Source: an uncultured Candidatus Rokubacteria bacterium
Lineage (GTDB): Bacteria > Methylomirabilota > Methylomirabilia > Rokubacteriales > DASRDR01
Assembly (NCBI GenBank): GCA_963708025.1
Contig: CAVPSB010000015.1
Coordinates: 192,001 to 256,000, forward strand
DNA length: 64,000 bases
Reading direction: 5' to 3'
Part shown: piece by piece, positions 1-19,389 of the stretch
How the letters are laid out: each line of letters starts with the position of its first letter
Numbering within the stretch: position 1 is the first letter of the stretch
Made by a program: the position numbers and the translations under genes
Notes under the pieces: model-generated
What the model saw: only the letters and a program-made list of their open reading frames with translations
What the model was told of the DNA's origin: nothing
The model's database searches: none

Positions 1-1053
1 GTCCGGGCCGGCATCCAGCCGTTCCTCAGCGACTTCCGCGGCTTCCTCTTCGCCGACAACGAGCTGGGCGTCCGGTTCCTCGGCAACTACTTCGCGAACC
101 GCCTCCAGTACAACGTGGCCTACTTCCACATGCTGGAGAAGGACACCAACAGCGGGTTGAACCGGCTGACCGCCCGGGACCAGAACGTCGTCATCGCCAA
201 CCTCTACCGCCAGGACTTCATCTGGCCCGGCTACACCGCCCAGCTCAGCTTCCACTACAACAACGACAGAAGAGCACCCAGTTCGACGACAACGGCTTCA
301 TCGTCCGACCGGCGGCCATCGGCACGATCCAGGAGCACGAGCTCGACGCCTACTACCTCGGCTGGACCGGCGACGGCCACATCGGGTGGCTGAACATCAC
401 CCACCCGTTCTACCAGGTGCTCGGCCGCGACAGCCTCAACCAGATCGCCGGCCGCTCGGTCGACATCAACGCCCAGATGTTCGCCCTCGAGCTCTCGGCG
501 GACCTCGACTGGCTGCGCCCGAAGGTCTCGTTCCTGTGGGCCTCGGGCGACCCCGATCCCCAGGACGGCACCGCCCGCGGCTTCGACACGATCTTCGACA
601 ACCCGAACTTCGCCGGCGGGCCGTTCAGCTTCTGTCCGCCAGGGGATCGCGCTGACCGGCGCCCGGTGAACCTGGTCAATCGGAACAGCCTGGTGCCCGA
701 CCTCCGCTCCAGCAAGGAGCAGGGGCAGGCGAACTTCGTCAACCCCGGCCTGTTCCTCTTCAACGTGGGCGTCGACGCCGCGGTCACCCCGAAGCTCAAG
801 GCCCTGTTCAACGTCAACTACCTCCGCTTCCAGGATACCGAGCTCGCTCCGGGTGCTCCTCTTCCAGAACAAGATCCGCGACGACATCGGCTGGGACCTC
901 AGCCTCGGGATCCAGTACCGGCCGTTCCTGAACGACAACATGATCGTCACGGCCGGCTTCGCGGGATTCATCCCCGGCGACGGGTTCAAGGACATCTACC
1001 AGAAGGACGACCTGCTCTACTCGGCGTTCGCCACCTTTACCGTCACGTACTGA
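1..1053 (+). CDS. Outer-membrane beta-barrel protein (alginate-export/porin-like), 5'-truncated by window edge, frameshifted
   Basis: Joined frames give amphipathic beta-strand-like segments (QMFALELSADL, LFLFNVGVDAAV, WDLSLGIQYRP) and a C-terminal YSAFATFTVTY with a terminal aromatic residue (beta-signal-like). TGA at 1051-1053. Confidence 0.7.
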
Positions 1054-1158: not shown

Positions 1159-4100
1159 ATGCTCAGCGCAGCGACTCGAGGTGGTCTGGGCCGCGCCGCC
1201 CTCGGCTGGGGGCTCTCGGCTGTACTCGTGGCATTCGTCATCGTCGCCTGTGCCCGGGCGCCGCGAGCGCCGTGCCGGTCGCCGAGATGGCGACCAAGGC
1301 CGGCGACCTGAAGAAGCAGACGGAGCAGGACGTGGCCAAGAAGAGCGCCGGCTGCCTGACCTGCCACACCCAGACCGACTCGCAGACCATGCACGAGTCG
1401 CGACGGTGAGCTCGGCTGCATCGACTGCCACGGCGGCGACGCCGGACCGACGGCGCCGGCCGGCACGAAGGCCGGGGACGCCACCTACGAGGCGCAGAAG
1501 AAGGCGGCGCACGTGCTGCCGCACGACACCCATCTCTTCGCGCACCTCGGCGAACCCCGAGCGCTCGGCCACCGCCTGGCTGAAGGAGCGCGGAGTTCGT
1601 CCGGTTCGTGAACCCCGGCGATCTGCGGGTGGCCCGGGTGACGTGCGGCCTCACCGGCTGCCACCCCACCGAGGTGGCGGCGGTCGAGAAGAGCATGATG
1701 ACCCACGGCGGCCATGCTGTGGGGCGCCGCGCTCTACAACAACGGCGCGTTCCCGATCAAGCATGCCGCGGTTCGGCGAGAGCTACGGACCCGACGGCAC
1801 GCCCCAGCGCGCTGCAGACCGTCCCGCCGCCGACCCCCGAGGAGATCGTCAAGAAGGGCGTGCTGCCCTTTCTCGACCCGCTGCCGCGCTTCGAGGTCGG
1901 CCAGCCGGGCAACATCCTGCGCGTCTTCGAGCGCGGCCAGCGCAAGCCCCTCGAGATCGGCCTCCCGATCGTCGACGAGGACCCGGCCGGCCGGCCAACC
2001 GGCTGAGCCACCGCGGGCTCGGCACCCTCAACCGCACCGACCCGGTCTTCCTCAGCCTGCAGAAGACGCGCCTGCTCGACCCGATCCTCTCGCTTCCTCG
2101 GCACCAACGACCACCCCGGCGACTACCGCTCGAGCGGCTGCACGCGCCTGCCACGTGGTCTACGCCAACGACCGCGATCGCCGGTCCACTCCGGCCCGTA
2201 CGCCGCAGTTCGGCAACCTGGGCCGGACGCCAGCGACCGATCCGACCATCCCGCAAGGACGAGTCCGGGCACCCGATCAAGCACACGTTCACGAACGCGA
2301 TCCCCACCAGCCAGTGCATCGTCTGCCACATCCACCCGGGCACCAACGTGTGACACGACGCTACCTCGGCTACACCTGGTGGGACAACGAGACCGACGGC
2401 GAGCGTGATGTACCCGGCCAAGGAGCGCAGCAGCTCACGCGCCGAGCAGGTCGCACGAGATCCGAGCGGCCAACCCCGAGGGCGCCGCCGCTGCGCGGGC
2501 TGTGGTCGGACGTCGACTTCCTCGCACAACGTGACGCGACCTCAACCCGCAAGCTCACGCGCACCCAGTTCGCCGACTTCCACGGCCACGGCTGGATCTT
2601 CCGCGCCGTCTACAAGCAGGACCGCAAGGGCAACCTGCTCGACGCCAAGGACGACAGGTCGTCGCCCCCGACGATCCCGACCAGCTTCAAGAAGGCCGTG
2701 CACCTGAAGGACATCCACCTCGAGAAGGGGATGCACTGCGTCGACTGCCACTTCGAGCAGGACGTGCACGGCAACGGCAAGCTCTACGGCGAGACGCGCA
2801 ACGCGATCGAGATCGACTGCGTGGACTGCCACGGCACGATCGACGAGCAGGGCCACGCTGCGACGTCGGGCCCGGCGGCGCCCGCCGGGCGGCACCGACC
2901 TCTCGACCGCTGCACGACGCCGTTCGGCCAGCGCCGCTTCTACTGGCGGGGCGACACGCTGATCCAGCGCTCGATGGTCGACCAAGGAGCTCGCAGTGGG
3001 AGGTCGTGCAGGTGCTCGACACCATCGACCCGCCTCGACTGGGCCCGGCCAACCCGAAGTACAGCGAGCGGTCGCGGCTGGCCAAGACGATGCGCAAGGA
3101 CGGCACGACCTGGGGCGCCGTGCCGGCCGAGAGGGCAAGGACCTGGCGCACGCCGACGCCAAGATGACCTGCTACACCTGCCACACGTCGTGGATGACGA
3201 GCTGCTTCGGCTGCCACCTGCCGATGCAGGCCAACGAGCGCGAAGCCGCTCCTGCACAACGAGGGCGACGAGCCGCGCAACTGGACGCCGTACAACTCCC
3301 AGGTGCTGCGCGACGACGTCTTCATGCTGGCGATCGACGGCACGGTCACCGGGCAACCGGATCGCGCCGGTCCGCTCCTCGAGCGCCGTCCTCGTCGGCT
3401 CGCAGAACGCCAACCGCGAGTGGGTCTACTCGCAGCAGCAGACCGGTCTCGGCCGAGGGCTTCAGCGGCCAGGCCTTCAACACGTCACGTTCCCCACACG
3501 GTGCGCGGCCGACCGAGACGCAAGCAGTGCACCGACTGCCACGTCTCGGCAGGCGAACGACAACAACGCCTGGATGGCGCAGCTCCTGCATGCAGGGCAC
3601 GAACTTCGTCAACTTCATCGGCCGCTACGTCTACGTGGCCGAGGGCAAGGCGCGGGCTCGAGGCGGTCGTCGTCACCGAGCGGGACGAGCCGCAGGCGGT
3701 GATCGGCAGCCACCTGCACGAGCTGGCCTACCCGACGAACTACCAGCAGCACGCGGCGCGCGGCAGCCGTCCTGCAGGAGGCCTACCACCACCGGGGCCG
3801 CGACGTCTCGACTGTTCGGCCGGCGACGAGGTGCTGTCCATCCAGCTCCGCGGCGAGTACCTCTACACCGCCAACGGGCCGGGCGGCTTCCGCGTCTACG
3901 ACGTCGCCAACATCGACAACAAGGGCTTCTCCGAGCGCATCGTGACCGCGCCGGTCTCGCCGCTCGGCCAGCGGCTCTACGTGAAGACCAAGTACGCGAC
4001 CGCGGTCGCGTCGCCCACCACGCTGGCGCGTCGACCCGACGCGGGCGCAGCGGCCGGAGAACGCAGGAGCAGCCGATCCACCCGCTCTACGCGCTACCTC

Positions 4101-5075
4101 TACGTCACCGACCGGGAGGAAGGGCTCGTGTCATCGGCATCCGCCGTCGAACCGCCGGCGCACGCTGCTCGACGGCGATCCGAACAACAACTTCCTCGAA
4201 GCGCGCCGTCGCCTTCAACCCCGACGGCGTGCTCGACGGCGCCGTCAACCTCACCATCGCCGGCACGCTACGCCTACGTCCTGCGCCAAGCGCGGCCTCG
4301 TCGTCGTCGACCTCGACGACCCGCTCCAGCCGACGGTCGTGGCCGAGGTCGGCGCGCCGGCGATCGTCGAGCCCGCGCGCCGTCGCCGTGCAGTTCCGCT
4401 ACGCCTTCGTCACCGACGGCGAGGGGCTGAAGGTCATCGACGTCACCGAGCCGACCGCGCCCCGGCCGGTGCCCGGCGCGACGGTGCCGCTCGCGGACGC
4501 GCACGGGATCTACGTCGCCCGCACCTACGCCTACGTCGCCGCCGGCGCCAAGGGCTGGTCGATCGTCGACGTCGAGCGAGCCGGAGCGCGCCGACGCTCG
4601 ACCAGATGTACAACGCCGACGGCGCGCATCAACGACGCGCGCGACGTGAAGGTCGGCATGACCAACGCCAGCGCTCTTCGCCTACGTCGCCGACGGCAAG
4701 AACGGCCTGCGCGTCGTCCAGCTCATCTCGCCGCGACGACAACGCCGAACTACACTCGGCTTCAGCCCGCGGCCGACGCCGCGGCTCATCGCCACCTACG
4801 AGACGCACGGGCCGGCGCTGGCGCTCTCCAAGGGCCTCGACCGCGACCGCGCCGTCGACGAGAGCGGCAACCAGATCGCCGTCTTCGGCCGGCGCGGCGC
4901 CCGCCCGTTCAACCGGGCCGAGATGGAGCGCCTGTACCTCCGCGACGGCAAGCTCTGGACGGTGAAGGACACGCCGCCCGGCGCGCCGCGAGAGATGAAG
5001 GGCGCGGAGCCGAAGAAGGAAGAGGAGCCCGCCCCGCAGGAGCGCCGGCCCCGCCGCGGCGCCCCCGGCGGCTAG
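1159..5075 (+). CDS. Large multiheme c-type cytochrome lipoprotein with C-terminal LVIVD-type repeats (many frameshifts)
   Basis: SD GAGGAG then ATG 1159; hydrophobic signal ending in lipobox-like IVAC. Heme motifs across frames: CLTCH, CIDCH, CGLTGCH, C(TA)CH (split by an indel), CIVCH, CVDCH, CVDCH, CYTCH, CFGCH, CTDCH. Then repeats such as [50 protein letters not shown] at 5073-5075. Confidence 0.8.
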
Positions 5076-5446: not shown

Positions 5447-7631
5447 TCAGCGCGAGGAGATGTCGGTGGCCGGGAGGCCTTCGCTGCGGGGCGGGCGGGG
5501 GGCCGGGACGACCGGGGCCGGCAGGTTCGGGTCCTCGATCTGCTTCTTGAGCTGGGGAGCCCGGCGCTTGAATTCCTCGTAGACGGACTGGGCCTCGGCC
5601 GGGTCCAGCACGATCCGCGGGGTGACGAGGATCATCAGCTCCGTCTTGATCGTCCCCTCTGTCGTGGCGCCGAAGAGATAGCCGAGGATCGGGATCCGGG
5701 ACAGGAACGGGATCCCCTGCCGGACCAGCGCCTTCCGCTCCTCGATGAGCCCGCCCAGGACCAGCGACTCGTTCTCGCCCACCACGACCGACGTCTCGGC
5801 CACCCGCTTGATGAACACCGGCGACTGGGTGGCGGTGACGTCGTTCGGGCGGACGTCGGAGACCTCCTGGCGGACGTCCAGCGCCACGAAGCGGTTCTCG
5901 CTGACCCGGGGCAACACGGTCAGGAGGATGCCGGTGTCCCGGTACTCGACGGTCGTCGTGATCACCGAGGAGGGCTGGACCGCGCCGACCACGCCGGTCG
6001 TCGGCTGCTGCTGGCTCGTGAGGATGGGAACGGAGCGGCCCACGTGGATCTGGGCGCGCTTGTTCTCCACGGCGAGCACGCGCGGGCTGGAGAGCACGTT
6101 GACGCGGTTCTCGGCGGCGAACGCCTGGAGCATCCCCAGGAAGTCCTTGCTCTGGAGCACGAAGAAGAACGTCGGGGGGAGCGGCACGATCCCCGGCACC
6201 CCGGTGTCGAGGCCGCTGCTGAGCGTGACATTCTCCCCCCCGATCTTGATGCCGCCCGAGCGGAGCGCCCACTCGATGCCGAGCGAGGTCGAGTCGTCGA
6301 GCGTGAACTCCGCCACCAGGATCTCGATGAGGACGCGCCGCGGCATCCGGTCGAGCCGCTGCAGGATCGGCTGGAGGACCGCCCAGCTCGGCGGCGTGGT
6401 GGTGATCAGGAGGGTATTGGTGGCCTCGTCCGCGATCACGCGGACGTCCTCGGCCGCCAGGTCGTCGCCCTCCGGGACCACGCCCGGCGGCGGCAGTCCT
6501 CCGGGCGGCGGCCCCCCTGGCGCGGGCTCGAACGGCATGCCCGGGGGCAGGGGGCCGGGGCGCGGGGCCGGGAGCTCGGGCCCCTCCCCGCCGGCGGAAG
6601 AGCCCGGTCAGGGTGGTGGCCAGCTCCTTGGCCCTCAGGTGCTCGACGCGGTAGATGAAGACACCGCGCGAGGGGGGCGACTGGGTGTCGAGCCGGGTCA
6701 CCAGGGCCTGGATGCGCTCCAGCACGGCCGGCGGACCCACGGCCAGGATGGTGTTGGTTCGGCCGTCGGCGAGTATCACGGCCCGACCGCCGGTCGGCTC
6801 CTGGAGGGCCGGCCCCGGCGGCGCTCCCTCCAGCCCCTCGGGGGCTCGCGGTACCGGGGGCGGGAGCGCTCGGCCGGGAGCGGCCGGCCCGCCCGCGACG
6901 AGCTGGGTGATGAGCGGGGCCAGGGTGGTGGCGTCCGCGAAGCGGAGCGGGAAGATCTGAAGCTGCTCCTGGGCGGTCGGCACGTCCAGCATGCGGATCA
7001 CCGACAGGTACCGGCGGAGCTTCTCGACGGAGTCGGTGATCACCAGGATGTTGGTGTCACGGTGCACGGACACCGCCGCCTCCCGGCTGATCAGCGGCAG
7101 CAGCACCCGGACCAGCTCGCCCGCCGATCCGTAGCGGAGCGGGATCAGCTGGGTGACGATCTCCTCGGGCCGCCGGCTCGGATCCGGCTCGGACCCCACC
7201 ACGACGGGGAGCCCCTGGGCCTGGGCGGCGGCGATCCGGATGATCTTGTAGAGGTCGCCGGCGCGGACCGCGGTCAGGCCGTGGGTTTCCAGGACCGTCA
7301 GGAGCATGTCGAACAGCGCGCGGCGCGGCACCCGGCCCTGGACGGTCACCTTGCGGCGGACCTCGGGGGCCAGAACGTAGTTGAACTCGATGGCCTGGGC
7401 GACGGCGTCGAGGACGACGTCCAGGTCGGCGTCCTGGAAGTTCAGGGTCACCAACTCGTCCTCGGTGGCGAGGCGGGCCGGCGCCGGCGCCTGGGGGAAC
7501 ACCGGGGTCAGGACGGCGCCCGGCAGGGCGAGGACGGTGAGGACGGCGAGGGACCAGCGAGCCAGGCGCGCGCGCCTCGCCGGCAGCCCCTCCCGCCGAC
7601 GGCGCCGGGGGGTCGTGCACCACACACTCAT
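5447..7631 (-). CDS. gspD: Type II secretion system secretin (GspD-like), one frameshift near 6570
   Basis: N0 domain VTLNFQDADLDVVL, N-domain repeats (LIPLRYGSA, FPLRFADA, YRVEHLRA) and secretin core (VLIEILVAE, NVLSSPRVL, EYRDTGILLTVLPRV, IPFLSRIPILGYLF, ELMILVTPRIV). Confidence 0.9.
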
Positions 7632-7721
7632 CGGGGAGTCGTTCCGGACCGCGGGCCGTCACCCGGCCCGCCATCCGACCGGGGCACTCTACACTCGCCT
7701 CTCGCGGGCCGTCAAGCCACC

Positions 7722-9234
7722 GCATCGGATCAAAACTTCGGTTACCGAACGGAGGGGGCTCCATCAGAAGTTACGGTTACCAACTCCAGCCAGGAGGTGA
7801 CCGTGACGCGAGCCGGATTGCGGGAGTACGCCGCCGCGCAGCGGGAGCGCTATCTCGGCGCCCGGCGGGCCGACAAGCATCGGCTGCTGACCGAGGTGGT
7901 GACCGTCACCGGCCTGCACCGCAAGGCGGCCATCCGCCTGCTGCGGCGCCCCCCGCGCCCGCCCGGCGGCCGCCCCCGCTCGGGCCGCCCCCGCGTCTAC
8001 GGCCCCGCCGTGGCCGCCGCCGCGCAGCTCCTCTCCGAGGCCACCGGCCACATCGGCCCCCACCGCTGGCACCCCTTCCTCCCCGAGCTGCTCGATCGCC
8101 TGACCCGGAGCGGCGACCTGGTCGTCCCCCCGGAGGTCGACAAGCGCCTCCGCCAGGTCAGCCCCGCCACGCTGGCCCGCCTGCTGGCCCCGTTCCGGGC
8201 CACGCTCCCCGGGCGGGGGGCCACCACCACCCGCCCCGGGGCCTGGCTCAAGCATGAGATCCCCGTCCGCACCTTCGCCGAGTGGAGCGACGCCCAGCCC
8301 GGCTTCCTCGAACTCGACTTGGTCGCCCACTGTGGCCCGACCACGCGCGGCTTCTATCTCTGCACCCTCTGCGCCGTCGATGTCGCGACCAGCTGGGTCG
8401 AGCTCCAAGCCGTCTGGGGCAAGGGCCAGCTGCGGGTCGGCACCGCCATCCACCACGTCCGCCAGCGCCTGCCCATGCCCTTGCGCGGCCTGGACAGCGA
8501 CAACGGCTCCGAGTTCATCAATCACGACCTGTATGCCTGGTGCCAGCGCGAGGGCATCACCTTCACCCGCAGTCGTCCCTACCAGAAAAACGACAGCGCC
8601 CACGTCGAGCAGAAGAACGGCGCCATCGTCCGCCCCCTCATCGGCTATGATCGGTACGCCTCCCGCGCCGCCTATGCCCAGCTCGCCCGCGTCTACGAGC
8701 TCGCCCGGCTGCACATCAACTTCTTCCAGCCGGTCCAGAAGCTCGTGACCAAAGCGCGCCGCGGCCCGCGCGTGCATCGCGTGTACGACCGCGCCCAGAC
8801 CCCGTATCAGCGCCTGTGTGCCACGGGCGTCCTCCCGCCCCCGCGCCGGCAAGAGCTCGAGGCCGTGTATCAGCGGCTCAACCCCCTGCACCTCCGCCGG
8901 CAGCTCGAGGCCGCCCTGGATCGCCTCTGGCCCTTGGCCGTCCCGGCCCCGCCCGCGCCGGCCGCACCCCGGGAAAACGCCCCGGAAAGGGAATAGCCGG
9001 ATATGGCCTCGCGCCCAACTCGCGCTCCTACGGGCGCCCAGCGGCCCGCGCGCCTGACCCCGGGCCTGGCCAGCGGCCCCAGGCGCTCCCGGGGCGCGCC
9101 GCCCGCCCGGTCCGCCGGCACTCCCACGGCCTCACGCGCCGCCCTGGGCGGCGCCGCCACCCTGCGGCCCCGGGTAACCCTGACTTCTGATCTGACGGAT
9201 CACGGAGGGTAACCCTGACTTATGAGTGACCGCG
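7722..9234 (+). mobile_element. Insertion sequence with DDE (integrase-core) transposase and doubled subterminal inverted repeats
   Basis: Left repeats end GGTTACC at 7746 and 7781. Right repeats start GGTAACC at 9173 and 9208 (35-bp period at both ends). Possible 6-bp direct repeat GCCACC at 7716-7721 and 9235-9240. Confidence 0.75.
7803..8996 (+). CDS. DDE transposase (rve/integrase core; ISNCY-like)
   Basis: SD AGGAGG then GTG 7803. Motifs GFLELDLVAHCG, LDSDNGSEFIN, FTRSRPYQKNDSAHVEQKN. Frame intact. Confidence 0.9.
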   Translation: MTRAGLREYAAAQRERYLGARRADKHRLLTEVVTVTGLHRKAAIRLLRRPPRPPGGRPRSGRPRVYGPAVAAAAQLLSEATGHIGPHRWHPFLPELLDRLTRSGDLVVPPEVDKRLRQVSPATLARLLAPFRATLPGRGATTTRPGAWLKHEIPVRTFAEWSDAQPGFLELDLVAHCGPTTRGFYLCTLCAVDVATSWVELQAVWGKGQLRVGTAIHHVRQRLPMPLRGLDSDNGSEFINHDLYAWCQREGITFTRSRPYQKNDSAHVEQKNGAIVRPLIGYDRYASRAAYAQLARVYELARLHINFFQPVQKLVTKARRGPRVHRVYDRAQTPYQRLCATGVLPPPRRQELEAVYQRLNPLHLRRQLEAALDRLWPLAVPAPPAPAAPRENAPERE

Positions 9235-9361: not shown

Positions 9362-10589
9362 ATGAGCAGGAGCCTCCCGGGCATCACGTCCCTCATCCTC
9401 GTTGCGGCGATGGCCGTCGTCATCGGAGCCGCCGTGCAGAGCGCGGAGGCGCAGCTGGCGATTTCGAAGGAGTTCAAGTACACCGGCACCGGCTCGTGCG
9501 CCGCCTCGAGCTGCCACGGCGCCAAGAAGCCGGCCGCCAAGCCGGGCGATCCCGACGACACCTACACCGTCTGGGCGACCAAGGACAAGCACAACAAGGC
9601 GTATACCACGCTCACCAAGAAGGAATCGGTCGCGATCGCCCAGAAGCTCAAGATCGCCAAGGCGACGGAGTCGGACAAGTGCACCGGCTGCCACGCGCTC
9701 CACATCACCAAGGAGATGCTGGCCCCGAAGGCGAAGTACGACGTCGCCGACGGGGTGAGCTGCGACTCCTGCCACGGCCCGGCCGAGAAGTGGCTCGAGG
9801 GGCACGACAAGGGCGAGAAGAACTGGCCGCACGCGAAGTCGGTGAGCATGGGGATGTACGACACCAAGGACGTGCTGAAGCGGGCCGAGCTCTGCGTCTC
9901 GTGCCACCTGTCGATCGAAGCCGAGATGGTGGCGGCCGGTCATCCGACGATGATCTTCGAGCTCGACAGCTTCAGCGCAGAACCAGCCCCCGCACTGGAA
10001 GGACCAGAAGGACTGGTTCGGCGCCCAGGCCTGGAGCACCGGTCAGGCGGTCGCCCTCCGGGAGTCGGCCCAGCAGCTCGCGACCCGGGCCAAGGGGAAC
10101 GCGCCTGAGGCGCTGATCAAGGAGAGCTTTGACCAGACCCGCGGCCACGCCATCTCGCTGCGGTCGGTCCTGGGCCAGGTGGCCGCCGACGCCGGCAAGA
10201 AGCTCGACGCCGAGATCGCCGCGATGGGCGACGGGAAGGACAAGGCCAAGGTGGCGGCCGCCGCGACCAACGTCGCCAAGCTCGGCGGCGACCTCTCCAA
10301 GCAGCTCTCGCAGACGAAGTTCAACAAGGACATCGTCTGGGCGACTCTCAAGGCGGCGGTGAGCGATCCCGAGCGGGCGACCTCGGCCGGGCTGCGCTCG
10401 GCCGAGCAGGTGGCCATGTCGGTGGACAGCCTCTTCCGCTCGGTCAACGCCGTGGCGAAGCCTCCCGAGGGGAAGGCCATCGACGCCGCGATCGGGAAGA
10501 TGTTCGACGAGCTGCCGAGCAAGCCGGCGGACTTCGACGCCAAGAAGTTCTCGGCCAACCTGCAGGCGATCGGCAAGAACATCAAGTAG
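9362..10589 (+). CDS. Periplasmic tetraheme cytochrome c (c554/c552-like N-domain plus helical C-domain), frameshift near 9985
   Basis: Signal peptide; CAASSCH, CTGCH, CDSCH, CVSCH. Continues in a second frame to TAG 10587-10589. Confidence 0.85.
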
Positions 10590-10605: not shown

Positions 10606-12355
10606 ATGGCGCAGCCTGGCGAGGTCATCGTCTCCGAGCTGCGGGAGATTCAGCACCGGTACGGCTATCTCCCGGTGGAAGAGCTCCGCGCGCTCTCCGC
10701 CCGCATCGCGGTGCCCGTCTACCAGCTCCACGGCGTCGCCAGCTTCTTCCCCCACTTCCGGCTGCACCCGCCGGCCTCGGTCGAGGTGCGGGTCTGCGCC
10801 GACATGTCGTGCCACCTCAACGGGGCCCGGCAGCTCCTCGGCGCCTTCCAGACCGAGGCCAACCGGATCTCCGACATGGACGTCCAGACCGTGTCCTGCC
10901 TGGGGCGGTGCGATCGGGCGCCGGCGGCGGAGATCGGCGAGCACATCCTCGAGTCCGTCTCCATCGAAGAGGTCCCCGACCTCGTCCTGTCCGCCGCCGA
11001 CGGCAAGATGGAGCCCCGGCCCCGGGTCGGCGCCCAGCCCACGGCTCTCCGCAGCGATCCCTACAGCGGCAGCCCGCGCTACGAGGCGGTCCAGCAGTTC
11101 CTGGGTCACGGCGACGTCGAGCGAGTGCTGGGGACCCTCAAGGCCGCCGGGCTGCGCGGCATGGGCGGGGCCGGCTTCCCGACCGGCGGACAAGTGGGAG
11201 CTCGTGCGCAGCGCGCCGGGCGACGACAAGTACATCGTCTGCAACGCCGACGAGAGCGAGCCCGGCACCATCAAGGACCGCTTCATCCTGGAGTCCCTGC
11301 CCCTATCTGCTCGTGGAGGGCATGATCGCTCGCCGGCCTGGTCACCGGCGCCCGAGCAGGGCATCGTCTACATCCGCCACGAGTACGAGCCAGATGCGAG
11401 GAAGCGCTCGAGCGCGCCATCCGCGAGGCGCGGCAGCAGGGCGTGCTCGGCCCCCGGGTCATGGGCTCGGACCGCACCTTCGAGCTCGAGACTCTTCGTC
11501 AGCCCCGGCGGCTACATCTGCGGCGAGGAGTCCGCGCTGCTCGAGGCGATGGAGGGCAAGCGGGCCGAGCCGCGCAACAAGCCGCCGTTCCCGGTCACCC
11601 ACGGCCTGTACGGCAAGCCGACCGTCATCAACAACGTCGAGACCCTGGCCTTCGTGCCGCTCATCCTGCTGCAGCGGCGCCGACTGGTTCAAGGCGCAGG
11701 GCGCAGAACGGCGCGGCAGCGGCCTCAAGTTCGTCGGCATCAGCGGCGCACGTGGCGCGGCCGGGCGTCTACGAGGTCGCCGATGGGCACGCACGGCCCG
11801 CGAGGTCATCTACGACCTCGCCGGCGGCATGCCGGAACGGGCGGCGCGCTGAAGGCCTGGGCCCCGTCGGGGCCGTCGTCGGGCTTCCTGCCGGCCTCGA
11901 TGATCGACTTGCCGCTCGACTTCGGACACGCTGGCCAAGGCCGGCTCGATGCTCGGCTCGGGCGCGGTGCGTCGTGATGGCCGAAGGCACGTGCATGCTC
12001 GACATGGCGCTCAACGCCGTACGCTTCTTCCGCAACGAGTCGTGCGGCAAGTGCGTGCCGTGCCGGGTCGGCTCCGCAGAAGATGGTCGAGCTGCTCGAC
12101 CCGGGTCGACGCGGGGCCAGGCCGGACCGGGCGACATGGACACGCATCGACGACCTCGACCAGGCGCTGCGGCTCACCTCGATCTGCGGCCTGGGCCAGG
12201 TCGTGCCGAAGCCGATGCGCTCGGTCGATCCAGCACTTCCGCGAGGAGGTGGACGACGCACCTCCTCCGGCAACGCTGCCCCGCGGGCGTGTGCTCTGGA
12301 TCAGGCGGCGGGCTCCGATCGGGACTTGACGGCGACCATCATGAGGCGGCTCTGA
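10606..12355 (+). CDS. NuoE-NuoF-like fusion (2Fe-2S + FMN/NAD(P)H-binding + 4Fe-4S), frameshifted
   Basis: NuoE motifs GVASFFPHF, VCADMSCH, SCLGRCDRAP. NuoF motifs GLRGMGGAGFPTG, CNADESEPGTIKDR, YICGEESALLEAMEG, NNVETL, ESCGKCVPCRVG, SICGLG. TGA/ATG overlap at 12353-12357. Confidence 0.9.
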
Positions 12356-14586
12356 TGGCGCCGGCCACGTCGAGGCGACCATCGACGGGAAGTCGGTCGA
12401 GCGTGCCGGCCGGCACCACGATCTTCGACGCCGCCCGCGCGGCTCGAGCATCGCCATCCCGACCCTCTGCCACCCGCAGCACGCAGACGCCGGTCGGCGT
12501 CTGCCGCGTCTGCGTGGTCGAGGTGAAGAACGCGCGCGTGCTGCCGGCGGCCTGCGTCCGGCCGGTCGAAGCCGGGCATGGAGGTCATGACCGCGCGCCG
12601 AGGCGTGCAGCGAGCGCGCCGGACGCTGGCTCGAGCTGCTGCTGGCCGACCACCCCGTCCCCTGCGCCCGGCAGGCGAAGACGCGGCGACTGCGAGCTGG
12701 AGAACCTGGCCGCGGGCTGCCGACCTGGCGCCGGCCGCGCTTCGCGAGGCCGCCCGTCGCCGCGTGGGCGCGACGACTCGCCCCCCATCATCGCCGTCGA
12801 CCACACCGCCTGCATCCTGTGCGACCGCTGCATCCGCGGCTGCACGCGAGGTGCAGGCACAACTTCGTCATCGGCCGCGCCGGCAAGGGCTACGCGGCGG
12901 GGATCGCCTTCGACACCGACGTCCCCATGGGGAAGTCGACCTGCGTGTCGCTGCGGCGAGTGCATGGTCTCGTGCCCGACCGGCGCGCTCACCCTCAAGA
13001 CCGAGGCGGCGTCGTCGCCGGCCTCGACCCGGCGGCCAGCTGGTCGGCGAGACGCTGACGTCGGCCGACGATCCGGGACGTGCCGATCTTGCGAGGGGTG
13101 TCGGGCAACGTTCCTGGACCTGAACCGCGGCGCCGGTGGTCGGCGGCACGTTCCAGCCGGGCGAGGTCATCTGCCGGGAGGGCGAGTTCGGCTCCACCGC
13201 GTTCTACGTCCTGAGGGGCAAGGTCGAGGTCTCCATCCCGACCCCGATGGCCCACTGCGACGAGCCACGCCGGGGCTCCACGGGCGGCTGGCGGGGCTGC
13301 GCTCCACAAGATGACCCGAGCTCCGGTGCACAGCGGGACGGAGCCCAGGCGGAGTCGGCGACGCCCACCGGCTATCATCCCGATCGACGCCTCCGTCGAC
13401 CTCGCCTACGACAAGCCGGTCGCCCAGCTCGGGCCCGGCGAGCTGTTCGGCGAGATGACCTGCCTCATCTTCTATCCGCGCTCGGCCACCGTGCGGGCGG
13501 TCGAGGACGACCGTCGTCCTCGAGATGCTGCGCAACGTGCTGCAGATCCTGCAGCGGAACAAGACGTTCCGGCCGAGCTCGAGCGCGCGCTATCGCGAGC
13601 GCGCGCTCGACACGCACCTGCGCAGCGTCCCGATCCTGGCCGGCCTCACCGACGAGTTCATCGACCGACCTGCGCGACAGCGTCGAGCTGGTCCGCTACG
13701 AGCCCGGGCGAGGTGATCTGCCGGCAGGGCGACGCCGGCCGACAGCTTCTATCTGATCCGGATCGGCTTCGTGAAGGTGACGCCAGACGTTCCCCGGCGG
13801 CGAGCTGGTCGCTGCCGTACCTGGCCCGCGGCAACTACTTCGGCGAGATCGGTCTGCTGGGCGGCGGCGTCCGGACCGCCACCTGCACCGCGCTCGACCA
13901 CGTCGAGGTGGTCCGCATCAGCGGCCGACGACTTCCGACGCATGCTCGAGCGCTTCCCCGACGATCCGCCGCGCGCCTCGGCGGACGTGGCCCGAGCGCC
14001 GCACGCGAGGAGAACGCAGCGGCAGGCCTCACGGCTCGTCGACGTCGCCGCTCGAGGACTTCCTCGGCCAGGGGCTGATGGAGGCGCAGAACCTGCTGCT
14101 CATCGACCTCGACCGCTGCACGCGCTGCGACGCCTGCGTGCGGGCCTGCGCCGACGCGCACGACGGCGTCACGCGGCTGGTCCGCGACGGGCTGCGCTAC
14201 GACAAGTACCTGGTGGCGACCTCGTGCCGCTCGTGCCGCGACCCGCTGTGCATGGTCGGCTGCCCGGTCGGCTCGATCCGGCGCACGGACTCGCTCGAGA
14301 TCATCATCGAGGACTGGTGCATCGGCTGCGGCTGTGCGCCGAGCACTGCCCGTACGGCAACATCAACCTGCACCCGTTCAAGGTCACCGCCGACGCCCGA
14401 GCGCCGGCGGCAAGAAGGCGGTGGTCCGCGAAAGGCGACCGCGCTGCGACCTGTGCCGCGAACTGAACAGAGCCGAGCTGCGTGTACGCGTGCCCGCACG
14501 ACGCCGCCATGCGGGTCGAGCCCCGCGAGTTCTTCGCGACCGGGACGTCCCAGGTCCGGGGCGCCCCGCCGTCCATCCGGTCATGA
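12355..14586 (+). CDS. Fe-S protein: NuoG/HoxU-like N-terminus + two cNMP-binding domains + C-terminal multi-[4Fe-4S] domain, frameshifted
   Basis: N-terminal GVCRVCVVEV...AACVRP, CILCDRCIRGC, CGECMVSCPTG. cNMP domains EVICREGEFGSTAFYVLRG...LFGEMTCL..YPRSATVRA and EVICRQGD...YFGEIGLL..VRTATCTA. C-terminal CTRCDACVRAC, CRSCRDPLCMVGCP, CIGCG.CAEHCPYG, CDLC...CVYACPH. ATGA overlap with next gene. Confidence 0.85.
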
Positions 14587-15506
14587 TCATCGATCGCGGT
14601 CACCTCCGGTGGGTGGCGATCTGCCTCGGCATCCTCCTCGCTTCCACCGCGGTCTACATCCCGTACCACGTCCGCTCGCTCAACGGGCCGTCGGGCGGCA
14701 GCCTGATCGGGCTCCTCTTCGGCTTCATCGGCTACGGGCTCATGCTCTTCGCCGGCGCGCTCGGCGTGCGGACCCGGCGCGCGACCTGGCGCTTCGGTCG
14801 CGCGGAGACCTGGCTCAAGGGCCACGTCTGGCTGGCCCTGCTGGCCTATCCGCTGATCTACTTCCACGCCGGCTTCGCGTTCGGCGGGCCGCTGACCGTG
14901 GCGCTCATGATCCTGTTCACCATCGTGACCGTCAGCGGCCTCGTCGGCGTGGTGCTCCAGGGGATCCTCCCCCGCATGATGACCGAGCGGGTCCCGCTGG
15001 AGACGATCTTCGAGCAGGTGGACAACGTGCTGGCCCAGATCCGGGGGGAGGCCGACCACGTGGTCAAGGCGGTCGCCGATCCGGAGCAGGCGTCGGCGGA
15101 CGAGGCGGCGGCCACGGTCGGCCGCCGGCCGCCCCCGTCGGCTCGGCGGGCGCAGGTGCGGGCGCAGATCGGAACCACGTCGGCCCCGGCCGAGGAGGCC
15201 CAGGCCCTCAAGGAGTTCTACGAGAACGAGGTGCGCCCGTACCTGTACGACAAGGCGGGACGGACCGCGTCGCTCAACAGTCCGTCGAAGGCGGCGGTGG
15301 TCTTCGCCCAGCTCCGGACGCGGGTGCCGGACGAGCTGCACCACGTCGTGGACGACCTCCAGGCCATCTGCGAAGAGCGCCGCCAGCTCAAGGTGCAGAC
15401 CGGACTCCACTACTGGCTGCACGCGTGGCTCCTGGTCCACGTGCCGCTGTCGCTGGCGCTGCTGCTACTGTCCGCCGCGCACGCCGTCCTGGCGTTGCGC
15501 TACTAG
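14583..15506 (+). CDS. Polytopic membrane protein with His residues in TM helices (ferric-reductase/cytochrome b-like)
   Basis: About 5 hydrophobic helices; WLKGHVWL, IYFHAGF, WLHAWLLVHVPLS. Translationally coupled to the upstream Fe-S gene. Confidence 0.7.
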   Translation: MIIDRGHLRWVAICLGILLASTAVYIPYHVRSLNGPSGGSLIGLLFGFIGYGLMLFAGALGVRTRRATWRFGRAETWLKGHVWLALLAYPLIYFHAGFAFGGPLTVALMILFTIVTVSGLVGVVLQGILPRMMTERVPLETIFEQVDNVLAQIRGEADHVVKAVADPEQASADEAAATVGRRPPPSARRAQVRAQIGTTSAPAEEAQALKEFYENEVRPYLYDKAGRTASLNSPSKAAVVFAQLRTRVPDELHHVVDDLQAICEERRQLKVQTGLHYWLHAWLLVHVPLSLALLLLSAAHAVLALRY

Positions 15507-15515
15507 AGGCACTTC

Positions 15516-17073
15516 GTGGCGCGGGAGCGAACGACCAAGGGGCTGGCCAAGCGGATCGAGCTGACCTACTACCAGCACCTGCATCCCTTCCGGCGCCTGT
15601 GGCGGATTCTCTGCATCGCCCTGGTGTCGGTCGCCGCGGTGTGGCTCATCGTGATGGCGGTCATGGGGGATCAGCGGATCTACACGAGCGGTCCGGTGGC
15701 GACGGCTCACCGGATGTTCAACCTCGACTGCGAACGCTGTCACGTTCGACCGGCCGACGCCGGCGGCCCCGGTGGCCAAGGCCGACGGCGCGGCGCCGGC
15801 GGCGCCCGTCATCCCGGTCTCGACGACGCGGCACCCTGGCGGCTTCTTCCGCCGGGTCAGCGACGGCGCCTGCTTCAGCTGTCACGATGCCCCCGACCAC
15901 CACGCCAACGCGGCAGTGTCGCTGCGGTGCGCCGAGTGCCACCTCGAGCACAAGGTGGAGACCACGCTGGCCCGGATGTCGGACCGGCACTGCGTCCTCT
16001 GCCACGCCGACCTGAAGACCAAGAGCGGGACCACCGAGTACGAGCGCCAGGTCGTCAGCCTCGCCCGGCATCCGGAGTTCGCGGTCTTGCGGAAGAACGT
16101 CAAGGACGCGACCCAGATCAAGCTGAACCACGAGACCCACCAGAAGCCCGACTTGCCGGCCGGCGGCGGGAAGCGCGTGACGCTCGGCTGCGTGAGCTGC
16201 CACGTGCAGGACGACGCCGGGAAGTACATGAAGCCGATCTCCTTCGACCTGCACTGCAAGCAATGCCACCCGCTGGAGGCCAGCGCCGACGTCGTCGTGC
16301 CCCACCAGCGGCCCGAGATCATCCGGGGCTTCCTGCTCAGCCGCTCCGCCCGAGGCGGCGGGGCCGCGGCCAGCCCGGCGGCGGCGCCCGGCGCCGAGAA
16401 GCCGGCCGACAAGCCGGCCGAAGAGGAGGCCCCGAAGGGCCGCCGGCGGGGAACCGGCTCATCCGCGTTGCCGGAGGCGCTCGTGCGGCTCGTGGGCTGG
16501 GTCCAGGAGGCGGTCGGGACCACCGAGCGCCCGCCGATCCAGCTCGTCCAGCGGCAGCGCGGCGGGGGCGCGCCGGAGGCGCCGGCGGCGCCCTCCGGAG
16601 CGGCCCCGGCCGGAGCGGCGCCTGCCGCAGCGGCCCCGGCCGCGGGTGGCGGGGGTGGCGGGCTGGCGGGGGTTGTCCAGCTGGAGAAAGGCTTGTACGA
16701 GGGCAGGTCGGCGGTCTGTCCCTACTGCCACATGATCGAGAAGGCCGATCCGCTGCCCCGCATCGTGCCGCCGAAGATCCCCGTGCGCTGGTTGCCGCGG
16801 AGCTCGTTCGACCATCGAGCGCACCGGCCGCTGGCCTGCCTGGCCTGCCACCCGGACGCCAAGAAGAGCACGGACACGGCCGACGTGTTGTTGTCGAAGG
16901 TGGCAGTCTGTCAGGAGTGCCACCGGGAAGGCGGCGGGGCCCGGGCGGGCTGCGTGGAGTGCCACCTCTATCATGACCGGTCCAAAGAGCGGTCGCCGGA
17001 CGGCCCGCACACGGTGCCTCAGTTCGCCGTCACGGCCGGACGTCCGACCGCCGCGCCAGCGACGAAACCCTGA
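15516..17073 (+). CDS. Membrane-anchored decaheme cytochrome c (c3/c7-like), frameshift near 15770
   Basis: N-terminal TM anchor; CERCH, CFSCH, CAECH, CVLCH, CVSCH, CKQCH, CPYCH, CLACH, CQECH, CVECH. Confidence 0.9.
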
Positions 17074-17181: not shown

Positions 17182-18660
17182 ATGGGCACGCGAGACGTCT
17201 CCCGAATCGGTACGGGTGTCCTGATCGCCGTCGCGCTCCTCGGGTCCGCCTCCCGGGTCGGGGCCGTCCCGCTGACCGCCGACGAAGTCCAGCTCATCGT
17301 CAGCACGGCGGCCGCCTCGATCGACGCCACCACGGCGGTCATCGCGGTGACCGACCGCTCGGGCAACCCGCTCGCCGTGTTCCGGAAGATCAACGGGAAC
17401 GCAGGGGCCGCTGACACCGCGGTGGGTCTGGCCCGGAGCGCCGCGTTCTTCGCCAACGACCAGGCCCCGCTCTCCTCGCGGACCGTGCGCTTCATCACCG
17501 AGATCCACTTCCCGCCGGGGGTCGCCGGCACGCCCAACGGCGGGCAGTACGGCATCGAGAACACGAACCGGGGCTGCACGCTGAGCAACAACTTCAACCC
17601 CGGCAAGGCGGTCCCACCGTCCCGGTCGCTCAGCGGAGGCACCGGTCCGGGCATCATCACCGGCAAGCCCGACGTGTTCGACTCGAATCCCAACGCGGTG
17701 AACCCGGGTGGTGTCCCGGTCTACAAGGACAACCAGGTCGCGGGCGGAGTCGGCGTGACCGGCGTCTCCGCCGCGGAGGCCGAGTTCGCGGCCTTCAGCG
17801 GCGGCTTCGGGAACGGAAACCCCCGGTTCTCGCCGACCTTTGGCTCGCCGGGTGTCGTCTTCATCGACGGCGTCGCCCTGCCGTTCGTGAACCAGCGGAC
17901 CCGACCGGCCGGCAGTTCCCCTGGCAGCTTCGTCGGTGACTTCCTCCTGGGGCCGCAAGGGAGCCCGAACGCCGGCGTGCCGGACGGCTATCTGGTCGGT
18001 CCCGCCGGGAGCGCCGAGCTGAGCGCGGCGGAGGTCGACGGCATCGTGCGGCGGGCCGAGGCCCAGGCCAACAGCACCCGCGCCGCGATCCGGCTGCCTC
18101 TCGGCAGGACGACCCGGATGGTGATCTCCGTCTCGGACCTCCAGGGCAACCTGCTCGCGATCTTCCGGATGCCCGACGCGACGGTTTTCAGCATCGACGT
18201 CTCCGCGACCAAGGCCCGGAACATGGTCTACTTCCCGAGCACCCGGCTCGACCCGGCCGACCTACCCGGTGTCCCGCCCGGGACCGCCCTGACCGCCCGG
18301 ACCATCAACTTCGGCACTCAGCCCCTGTACCCGCCCGGCATCGATGCCGGCGGCCCCGGCCCCTTCTTCAACCTGTTCGTCCGGGACACGGCCCGTCCCT
18401 GCACGCAGGGCAACGACCAGCAGAACCGGGGGAACCAGAGCGGGATCGTCTTCTTCGCCGGCTCGGCCCCCCTGTACCGGAGCGGGGTGCTGATCGGCGG
18501 GCTCGGGGTGAGCGGCGACGGCGTCGAGCAAGACGAGGTCGTGACCGACGCTGGGTCACGTGGATTCGAGCCGCCCGACAACATCCGGGCCGACAACATC
18601 TTCATCCGCGGGGTCCGGCTCCCGTACTTCCGGTTCAACCGGAACCCGACCGCGCGCTGA
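17182..18660 (+). CDS. Secreted heme-binding protein with two GlcG/HbpS (DUF336)-like domains
   Basis: Signal peptide. Two units: IAVTDRSGNPLAVFR...GGVPVYKDNQVAGGVGVTG and ISVSDLQGNLLAIFRM...GSAPLYRSGVLIGGLGVSGDGVEQD. Confidence 0.8.
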   Translation: MGTRDVSRIGTGVLIAVALLGSASRVGAVPLTADEVQLIVSTAAASIDATTAVIAVTDRSGNPLAVFRKINGNAGAADTAVGLARSAAFFANDQAPLSSRTVRFITEIHFPPGVAGTPNGGQYGIENTNRGCTLSNNFNPGKAVPPSRSLSGGTGPGIITGKPDVFDSNPNAVNPGGVPVYKDNQVAGGVGVTGVSAAEAEFAAFSGGFGNGNPRFSPTFGSPGVVFIDGVALPFVNQRTRPAGSSPGSFVGDFLLGPQGSPNAGVPDGYLVGPAGSAELSAAEVDGIVRRAEAQANSTRAAIRLPLGRTTRMVISVSDLQGNLLAIFRMPDATVFSIDVSATKARNMVYFPSTRLDPADLPGVPPGTALTARTINFGTQPLYPPGIDAGGPGPFFNLFVRDTARPCTQGNDQQNRGNQSGIVFFAGSAPLYRSGVLIGGLGVSGDGVEQDEVVTDAGSRGFEPPDNIRADNIFIRGVRLPYFRFNRNPTAR

Positions 18661-19182: not shown

Positions 19183-19389
19183 CCTCCCGGGTCCACCGCC
19201 GTCCGCGACTCTCCCCGATTCGCCGAGCCGGGCCGTTCTCCTCGCCGCCCCTCTGGACGTACTCGCTGAGGTATCGTCGTCTCCTCGCCCGGGGACACGC
19301 GATGGTGGACAATGTCCAGGCCGGGTGGCGCGAGGCGGTGGTTGTATGCTGGAGGGGGAACCCCCCATTCAGGAGGCCCTCGAGCGACA

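Follow-up and report, generated by a model that had tools for sequence, protein, structure and literature searches.

A tandem of cyclic nucleotide-binding domains joined to two iron–sulfur blocks in a putative NADH-to-cytochrome connector of Rokubacteria and other uncultured bacteria

The Fusion Gene and Its Domains

The DNA analysed here, termed the window, is a stretch of 64,000 nucleotides (positions 192,001 to 256,000 of the forward strand of contig CAVPSB010000015.1, assembly GCA_963708025.1) from an uncultured Candidatus Rokubacteria bacterium. At 12355–14586 of the window lies a gene whose product combines an N-terminal iron–sulfur (Fe-S) block resembling HoxU, two consecutive cyclic nucleotide-binding (CNB) domains and a C-terminal ferredoxin block with four groups of cysteines. 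The gene and its parts, here called N-block, CNB-A, CNB-B and C-block, are as follows.

12355..14586, + strand: the whole gene, in which HoxU-like block, CNB-A, CNB-B and four-cluster ferredoxin are joined; 38 frameshifts (Pfam, NCBIfam, frameshift-aware alignment)
12360..13002, + strand: N-block, with a [2Fe-2S] site at 12468-12555, a degenerate His/Cys site at 12651-12693 and two [4Fe-4S] sites at 12811-12975
13064..13566, + strand: CNB-A, with an inserted loop at ~13250-13369 and a phosphate-binding cassette at 13446-13493
13609..14012, + strand: CNB-B, with a phosphate-binding cassette at 13839-13886
14075..14541, + strand: C-block, a DmsB/NrfC/HydN-like ferredoxin with four Cys groups (Cys pattern)

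The G+C content of the window DNA is 71%, and long open stretches are therefore found in every frame; no single open reading frame (ORF) spans 12355–14586 in the window as assembled. G+C at the third codon position (GC3) follows one steady frame from ~14550 onward and switches frame each 100–200 bases across ~11040–14550, and in three-frame translation the motifs of the gene are spread over all three frames.

An earlier note, made by a model from the letters of this DNA, had described the region as one protein in which two CNB domains are inserted into an Fe-S electron-transfer chain, and had given the order of the domains along the gene. Searches with in-frame pieces locate these domains where the note put them: Pfam family Fer2_4 is matched by the piece 12481-12582 (E 2.2e-5), cNMP_binding by three pieces (13136-13264, 13365-13511 and 13800-13922; E 1e-5 to 7e-7) and Fer4 families at 13961-14335 (E 1.8e-6). 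Intact orthologs give the same picture, as Pfam finds in each of three of them Fer2_4, a sub-threshold NADH-G_4Fe-4S_3, two 4Fe-4S groups, two cNMP_binding domains and a C-terminal dicluster pair; cNMP_binding scores 127–138 bits against a cut-off of 27.5, and the first of the two domains is split by an insert. In NCBIfam, the N-terminal side best matches group A6 [FeFe] hydrogenase, HoxU and NuoG, each in its N-terminal part, and the C-terminus matches HydN (6.8e-15) and DmsB (2.2e-12), all of them far below the curated cut-offs.

That a single gene rather than several is present, as the note had held, is borne out by two lines of evidence. In a frameshift-aware alignment of 12355–14586 with the closest intact ortholog (genome G003, locus L010), 33 one-base insertions and 5 one-base deletions are resolved, and the corrected product is identical to the ortholog at 548/730 residues; the corrected path is free of stops and keeps 33/33 of the ortholog cysteines as well as both F-G-E...R-(S/T)-A-T cassettes. 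Furthermore, when 61 genomes (the window's own and 60 relatives) were searched by DNA for full-length matches, such matches were found in 8 relatives at 73–80% identity, the remaining relatives having short partial matches or none, and in 8/8 of these relatives the gene is a single ORF of ~716–740 codons.

Conserved Residues in the Four Blocks

Conservation of ligand residues was counted over 44 diverse family members with 40–66% identity. The N-block matches HydA1 (7q4v, E 7.2e-49) and FdsA (6tg9, E 1.2e-41), and HoxU (5xf9_B) aligns with it at a TM-score of 0.80 normalised to the target. Every ligand of the [2Fe-2S] Cys quartet and of the two CxxCxxCxxxC groups is kept in 42–44/44 members, in agreement with the [2Fe-2S] cluster and the two [4Fe-4S] clusters proposed in the earlier note for a NuoG/HoxU-like N-terminus. 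The H/C cluster motif of that proposal fares differently. The His-ligated site reads H-x3-C-x2-Q-x5-C as opposed to the His(Cys)3 pattern H-x3-C-x2-C-x5-C, and its third ligand is Cys in 0/44 members (Q 21, E 8, H 6, G 5, others 4); each of the two remaining Cys ligands of this degenerate site is found in 33/44. Because the third ligand is never Cys, the N-block probably carries three clusters, not four.

In CNB-A, the residues of the phosphate-binding cassette are conserved almost without exception (G 44/44, E 44/44, R 41/44, T 44/44), and the domain is interrupted by a loop insertion of ~40–55 residues which is modelled with a predicted local distance difference test score (pLDDT) of <50. 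In CNB-B, the cassette has G in 44/44, E in 40/44 and R in 41/44 members, and the residue after the cassette Arg is variable (T 27, V 6, I 5, others 6 of 44). Membership in PF00027 is consistent with these counts, in that orthologs score above the Pfam cut-off and both domains have Gly-Glu and Arg-x-Ala-Thr, the window copy included. The best solved relatives of the tandem in sequence and fold matches are 5j3u, 3of1, 5dyk and 4z07, and the closest PDB relatives of CNB-B are the CNB domains of PKA-R and PKG (E down to 4e-20). Thus, the two cyclic nucleotide domains and their cassettes stand as first noted, and the label "CRP-type" given to them has to be replaced, since they are closest to the tandem CNB domains of PKA-R/PKG.

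The cassettes bear directly on whether these domains sense cyclic AMP (cAMP) or cyclic GMP (cGMP) at all. Some sensor domains of the CRP/FNR family bind other ligands, namely haem in CooA and 2-oxoglutarate in NtcA, and the CNB domains of the fusion protein could likewise be a structural spacer, a dimerisation module or a receptor of another ligand. The poorly modelled loop in CNB-A, the variable residue after the CNB-B cassette Arg and the lack of a consistently linked cyclase (see below) are in line with such a role, and CNB domains are known in non-regulatory fusions whose ligand role is not settled, the NCBIfam family 2B encapsulin being matched here at 3.2e-19. However, Gly-Glu and Arg of both cassettes persist in 40–44/44 members at the identity levels given above, which would not be expected of a mere spacer, and the nearest solved relatives are true binders of cAMP or cGMP. 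We therefore regard a non-sensing role as rather unlikely, and a regulatory role of the CNB tandem, judged from these residues, as the most likely one.

The four-cluster, DmsB/NrfC-like nature of the C-terminal domain, which had also been put forward at the outset, agrees with its four Cys groups. Of their 16 positions, 15 are invariant Cys in 44/44 members; the 16th, second in the fourth group, varies, with Cys in 25 members, Ser in 16, Asp in 2 and Gly in 1.

Family Size and Architecture

The family is large. Of 8000 proteins scored in a word-indexed search, 4666 reached E<=1e-3, and a full scan of cluster representatives returned 1712 proteins at E<=1e-30. The top 120 proteins of the former search are 592–742 amino acids (aa) long, have the same domains and are 64–100% identical to the query; the only names given to them are "cyclic nucleotide-binding domain-containing protein" and "CRP-like cAMP-binding protein/Fe-S...". 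Among candidate stretches in species-representative genomes, 552/599 encode a relative. The 80 loci that were kept belong to Acidobacteriota, Methylomirabilota/Rokubacteria, Eisenbacteria, Dormibacterota, classes of Chloroflexota and one actinobacterial metagenome-assembled genome (MAG). A relative from the same order has a protein identical to an NCBI entry that bears the label Methylomirabilota, by which the window's organism is assigned to that phylum. The genome G038, which is unpublished, underlies none of the conclusions drawn here.

When 270 homologs were sorted with block profiles built in this analysis, the full arrangement of N-block, CNB-A, CNB-B and C-block was found in 155, CNB-A, CNB-B and C-block with the N-block absent by profile in 48, and N-block, CNB-B and C-block in 24; an N-block with a C-block and no CNB domain at all was seen in only 1/270. 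The ends of 16 homologs were inspected, and in 8 of these (P0129, P0158, P0161, P0178, P0189, P0200, P0225 and P0244) the protein is 472–616 aa long, starts with Met and has the CNB region first. Such standalone CNB-CNB-ferredoxin relatives are 42–55% identical to residues ~224–712 of the fused family. At locus L162, a standalone CNB-CNB-ferredoxin gene is accompanied by the same membrane protein and decahaem cytochrome as in the window and by a divergent tetrahaem cytochrome, with no NuoEF.

The standalone proteins and locus L162 together indicate that the HoxU-like block is a fusion onto a CNB-bearing ferredoxin subunit, so that the conserved unit of the family is CNB-CNB-ferredoxin and the HoxU-like block an added input. 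This reverses the idea that a CNB pair had been inserted into a pre-existing Fe-S chain, as the pair belongs to the ferredoxin half.

Other chains extend the range of architectures. P0181 (1483 aa) has NuoE, NuoF, the HoxU-like block, the CNB domains and the ferredoxin block in one polypeptide, and P0137 and P0140 bear other N-terminal extensions of 180–360 residues with no Pfam match at 1e-5.

The Conserved Gene Cluster

In the window, the fusion gene lies in a cluster with the following genes, in which the Ptd names refer to the ptd system compared below and L059 is a locus with relatives of the first two genes.

1..1050, + strand: outer-membrane-barrel-like gene, 3' two-thirds, in more than one frame (tblastn to residues 234-608 of a 608-aa L059 protein, frames 1 and 3)
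1308..5054, + strand: frameshifted gene of a large multihaem cytochrome bearing LVIVD (beta-propeller) repeats (DNA identity, tblastn, five CxxCH in the window)
9362..10589, + strand: tetrahaem cytochrome, c554-like (PtdD-like), one frame change near 10.1 kb (Pfam Cytochrome_C554, E 3.2e-11)
10606..12350, + strand: NuoE-NuoF fusion (NuoEF), NADH/FMN input module, frameshifted from ~11185 (2Fe-2S_thioredx, E 4.8e-24 on 10606-11199)
14583..15506, + strand: 5-helix membrane protein (PtdF-like), intact, its start overlapping the stop of the fusion gene (model pLDDT 83)
15516..17073, + strand: decahaem cytochrome c (PtdG-like), membrane-anchored, one frame change at ~15.75-15.83 kb (haem motifs)
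17182..18660, + strand: HbpS-like (haem-binding/degrading family) protein, intact, 492 aa, with two HbpS-like stretches (Pfam, E 9.2e-21)

The core of this cluster, consisting of NuoE-NuoF, the fusion protein, the 5-helix membrane protein and the decahaem and tetrahaem cytochromes, is conserved across phyla. Gene order was counted in 80 genome loci, most misses being at contig ends: NuoEF lies upstream in 77 loci, the membrane protein and the decahaem cytochrome lie downstream in 79, and the c554-like tetrahaem cytochrome is a neighbour in 64. The same fused form and order are found in 65/80 metagenome loci, a further 13 being cut by contig ends.

The input module is readily recognised, as the ortholog of NuoEF matches NuoF at E 2.8e-138. 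The tetrahaem gene has three CxxCH motifs and one CxxxxCH. The decahaem gene has nine CxxCH at 15871-16951 and one in the frame of 15516, together with an N-terminal membrane anchor; its first haem motif and the anchor are in a frame different from that of the rest. The large multihaem/LVIVD gene shows 70–79% DNA identity to a gene found with the cluster at many loci in other phyla, and tblastn with the 1329-aa multihaem protein of L059, in which LVIVD is matched at E 3.1e-18, finds it in three frames of the window. For the 608-aa barrel-like protein of L059, Pfam gave no family; its reading as a barrel, drawn from a signal-peptide-like start and an aromatic C-terminus, is tentative. A homolog of the HbpS-like protein occurs in 11/80 loci, mostly in Methylomirabilota and Bryobacterales records.

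Between the multihaem/LVIVD and tetrahaem genes, at 5450-8990, lie two unbroken genes on the minus strand, together with an ORF that has an integrase core (rve) domain. At L059, the barrel, multihaem and tetrahaem genes stand together on the opposite strand and adjoin NuoEF, and in view of this layout the cluster seems to be rearranged in the window. Downstream of the cluster, an intact LigD with phosphoesterase, ligase and primase-polymerase domains is encoded at 19270-21894 (+).

The Membrane Partner and Its Predicted Docking

The membrane protein, with five predicted helices, has ~310 aa (307 in the window), of which H81, H95, H286 and H300 are invariant in 46/46 members and form two H-x13-H pairs on two transmembrane helices. 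Pfam matches are weak (DUF4405 in 21/46, Ferric_reduct in 13/46 and Ni_hydr_CYTB in 8/46 members), and the window copy has no Pfam match, even of this weak kind, and no NCBIfam family. By its two His pairs, the protein is a probable dihaem cytochrome b.

Complex prediction for the C-block and the membrane protein gave a score of 0.66, the best of 3 controls having 0.00. This mark was reached by 116/157 solved complexes and by 2/215 mismatched pairs; as the alignments were built in this analysis, these counts apply here only as a rough guide. Between runs, at least 94% of the contacts are shared, and the pLDDT of the partner is at least 74. In the predicted interface, the C-block turns its first and its last Cys group towards loop 64–78, residues 126–143 and residues 276–280 of the membrane protein, near H81, H280 and H286; such docking would agree with a topology that has the N-terminus and the long helical insert in the cytoplasm. 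The prediction supports binding of the C-block to the membrane protein.

Comparison with Known Systems

A ptdABCDEFG cluster has been named from marine MAGs, its function being stated to be completely unknown (bioRxiv 10.1101/2023.11.21.568154). As far as the description in that preprint goes, the four parts of the ptd core D-E-F-G recur in the window, and their relative order is unchanged. PtdE combines CNB and 4Fe-4S in one protein, as does the window family (cNMP_binding at the bit scores given above, plus Fer4); PtdE is counted there with two 4Fe-4S clusters (bioRxiv 10.1101/2023.11.21.568154), whereas the Cys pattern of the window family fits four. The label "ferric reductase-like" given to PtdF is weakly matched by Pfam for the membrane protein of the window. 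In the place of PtdC, the window cluster has NuoE-NuoF and the fused HoxU-like block, and in place of the pentahaem PtdA and the porin PtdB it has the ~1300-aa multihaem/LVIVD protein and the 608-aa barrel-like protein. The carriers also differ, those described for ptd being marine and those found here being soil Methylomirabilota and Acidobacteriota. The link to PtdE is drawn because the verbal description fits and because standalone CNB-CNB-ferredoxin relatives such as that of L162 exist. By gene order and domain content, the window cluster is to all appearance a NuoEF/HoxU-fed variant of this named and uncharacterised system. Our literature search returned no paper on a HoxU/NuoG-CNB-ferredoxin fusion.

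The NADH-input (diaphorase) modules HoxEFU, NuoEFG of complex I, FdsGBA and HydABC resemble the window system in having NuoE and NuoF followed by a domain with one [2Fe-2S] and two [4Fe-4S] clusters. Unlike the proteins of those systems, the window protein has no catalytic domain at this place and bears the CNB tandem and the ferredoxin block instead; moreover, the His(Cys)3 site of the HoxU/NuoG N-domain is degenerate in the window family. Scores against curated families reflect this distance: the HoxU equivalog NF005745 is matched with 173 and 162 bits as against a cut-off of 333, and NuoG with 132 as against 470.

With PKA-R and PKG, the family shares a pair of adjacent CNB domains carrying G-E and R-x-A-T cassettes, and differs from them by the loop insertion in CNB-A, the Fe-S flanks and the lack of a kinase-inhibitor segment. 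DmsB, NrfC and HydN with their anchors share the four Cys groups and, by prediction, docking on a membrane subunit. The window family is far below the cut-offs of HydN (55 as against 260 bits) and DmsB (47 as against 214), the second Cys of the fourth group is replaced by Ser in 16/44 of its members, the protein is cytoplasmic, and its partner is a 5-helix His-rich protein and not an NrfD/DmsC-type anchor. That partner is similar to the dihaem cytochromes b of the b561 and ferric-reductase families in its two His pairs, spaced 13 residues apart on two transmembrane helices; it differs in reaching no family threshold and in having five helices and a cytoplasmic helical insert of ~140 residues, and its haem binding is putative.

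Frameshifts in the Window Copy

The 38 frameshifts of the fusion gene do not stand alone. In NuoE-NuoF, comparison with the G003 ortholog reveals 19 insertions and 1 deletion (360/470 residues identical), giving 52 insertions and 6 deletions over both genes. Bacterial pseudogenes typically show a deletion bias, of which this is the reverse. The insertions are not tied to homopolymers, as 11/33 inserted bases of the fusion gene have an identical neighbour compared with a background of 0.39; there is thus no enrichment, and errors of the homopolymer type were set aside as the cause. Substitutions are not in excess in the broken part (44–59 per 300 nt, as against 64–72 in the intact downstream part).

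The extra bases, such as those at 12950, 13145 and 13781, are absent from public metagenome contigs of four runs. In one run, contigs are identical to the window over 14558-14759 and 14806-14962 and show 9 gaps and 5 substitutions over 14359-14584. These contigs cover the stretch in part, the best run containing 0.13 of the sampled window words and no run covering it as a whole.

Frame switching extends beyond the window. In a genome-wide count based on GC3, 128/2696 bins of 3 kb have at least 4 same-strand switches, the median being 1. Of the 30 worst bins, 18 (loci L181-L198) were taken, and 107 of 229 candidate pieces were run against Pfam; adjacent out-of-frame pieces were found to encode successive segments of gatB, a UvrD-type helicase, a sulfite/nitrite reductase, a DAO-family FAD-dependent oxidoreductase, an FGGY kinase and UbiE. 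One locus (C32:184520-185318) has five GatB_N matches in different frames, and these are the sole ones in a genome that is 99.67% complete. ABC-type genes elsewhere in the assembly are cut by frameshifts in the manner of gatB. ORF-length coverage, which is 58% and patchy, was discarded as a measure of genome quality, since wrong frames stay open at 71% G+C.

These observations, namely the insertion bias, its independence of homopolymers, the lack of excess substitutions, the contigs without the extra bases, the frame-switching bins and the housekeeping genes, sole gatB among them, that are cut likewise, make assembly errors the most likely source of the 38 frameshifts, and the organism probably has an intact gene.

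Two findings speak against assembly errors. The genes rpoB, rpoC and secA are intact, and the frameshifts fall on conserved genes of the cluster and spare the membrane-protein gene and the unrelated genes at 5.4–9 kb. They would suit real frameshifts, by which NuoEF, the fusion gene and the large multihaem gene would be decaying pseudogenes, perhaps after rearrangement and insertion of an insertion sequence (rve) between 5.4 and 9 kb. Breaks indeed cluster in the gene set, with 20 in NuoEF, 38 in the fusion gene and several frames in each of the multihaem/LVIVD and barrel genes, next to clean unrelated genes (5450-7560) and a clean rve element (7800-8990); in layout the cluster departs from its relatives, for example L059, and it contains an integrase-domain ORF. 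However, decay would have to be reconciled with the excess of insertions, with a corrected path without nonsense codons in which no cysteine is lost, with the absence of the indels from near-identical public contigs and with the same breakage in the sole gatB and in uvrD-, ubiE- and sulfite-reductase-like genes elsewhere. In addition, not one break falls in the 921 nt of the membrane-protein gene, which lies mid-operon; at the density of its neighbours, ~16 would have been expected. Decay is for these reasons very improbable in our judgement. A second identical copy that might have caused failure of repeat polishing was also considered and was not found in the genome, which has only NuoF paralogues with at most 71% identity. 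As probably false single-base insertions occur in patches of this assembly, its gene calls need care.

A Proposed Electron Route and Its Control by Cyclic Nucleotides

Taking domain make-up, gene order and predicted docking together, we propose with moderate confidence that the fusion protein is the cytoplasmic Fe-S connector of a membrane-crossing electron conduit and is regulated by its CNB tandem. In the proposed route, NADH (reduced nicotinamide adenine dinucleotide) would be oxidised at flavin mononucleotide (FMN) by NuoE-NuoF, and electrons would pass to the [2Fe-2S] and two [4Fe-4S] clusters of the N-block, arranged as in HoxU or in the N-terminus of HydA, FdsA or NuoG, and from there to the four-cluster C-block. 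The C-block would dock at the cytoplasmic face of the 5-helix membrane protein, whose two His pairs could hold two stacked haems b, from which electrons would move to multihaem cytochromes beyond the inner membrane, among them the membrane-anchored decahaem cytochrome.

Tandem CNB domains of PKA-R and PKG change shape strongly on ligand binding. In the fusion protein, binding of cAMP or cGMP might similarly shift the C-block relative to its donor, the N-block, and thereby open or close an outlet for reducing power. Gating of electron flow by cAMP or cGMP is a plausible hypothesis. The specific form of it, in which the ligand would bring the four-cluster block near enough to the HoxU-like block for tunnelling, or take it too far away, and so switch the NADH-fed trans-membrane route post-translationally, is put forward as a tentative possibility.

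The direction of flow may be considered separately, since the opposite direction, from periplasmic or extracellular donors through the cytochromes to reduction of NAD+, or a reversible route, would be compatible with control by the CNB tandem. Hox hydrogenases and formate dehydrogenases have NuoEF/HoxU-type modules that work reversibly, the c554-like tetrahaem cytochrome belongs, by its Pfam name, to a family known to accept electrons from hydroxylamine oxidoreductase, and the carriers include lineages named for iron metabolism in record titles. Uphill reduction of NAD+ by donors at the level of cytochromes would nevertheless lack a driving force, as no proton-pumping subunit is encoded in the cluster, and inward electron transfer would work against the membrane potential. 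Reverse or reversible flow thus appears improbable to us, and the outward route from NADH is kept as the working proposal.

Several observations weigh against this outward route and its control. The His-ligated cluster in complex I is the exit of the NuoG N-domain; since the corresponding site is degenerate in the fusion protein, its wiring must differ from that of complex I. In the AlphaFold model of the fusion protein, the arrangement of the domains is uncertain, the predicted template modelling score (pTM) being 0.62 and the pLDDT 58–81 in the C-block and <50 in the linker. As to the membrane protein, a VIA-align fold search returned only generic helical bundles, a designed two-haem protein among them; b561 (4o6y) and Dcytb (5zlg) reach Z 11.0 and 10.6, as against a guide value of ~13 for helical bundles, and Foldseek gave no match at E<=0.001. 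A cyclase gene lies by the cluster in 12/160 loci, which is about the level of chance, and the nearest cyclase match in the window's genome is ~56 kb away, with none near the gene in the window.

The genome nevertheless has 54 matches to class III cyclase domains, and cyclic nucleotides are therefore plainly in use in the organism. In 9 of the 12 loci with a cyclase (L101, L104, L122, L133, L135, L137, L145, L153 and L176), the cyclase gene is on the opposite strand, 3.1–3.6 kb downstream of the start of the C-block, at roughly the same relative place; these nine loci may be kin. The closest cyclase domain of the window's genome, which is on another contig (C48:17800-18324), strongly resembles those of the nine loci (E ~1e-43).

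Implications

Respiratory electron flow is known to be controlled mostly through gene expression or redox state, and to our knowledge ligand-operated control has not been described for NuoEF-type modules. If the proposal is true, a cyclic nucleotide sensor within an Fe-S relay would be a direct, fast and ligand-operated valve on reducing power. As the parts are soluble or small enough to be expressed, the question is directly testable. Many uncultured bacteria of soil and peat, among them Acidobacteriota, Methylomirabilota and others, carry the gene set, and through the link that it would make between NADH and periplasmic multihaem cytochromes it may matter for redox cycling of iron, humic substances or nitrogen.

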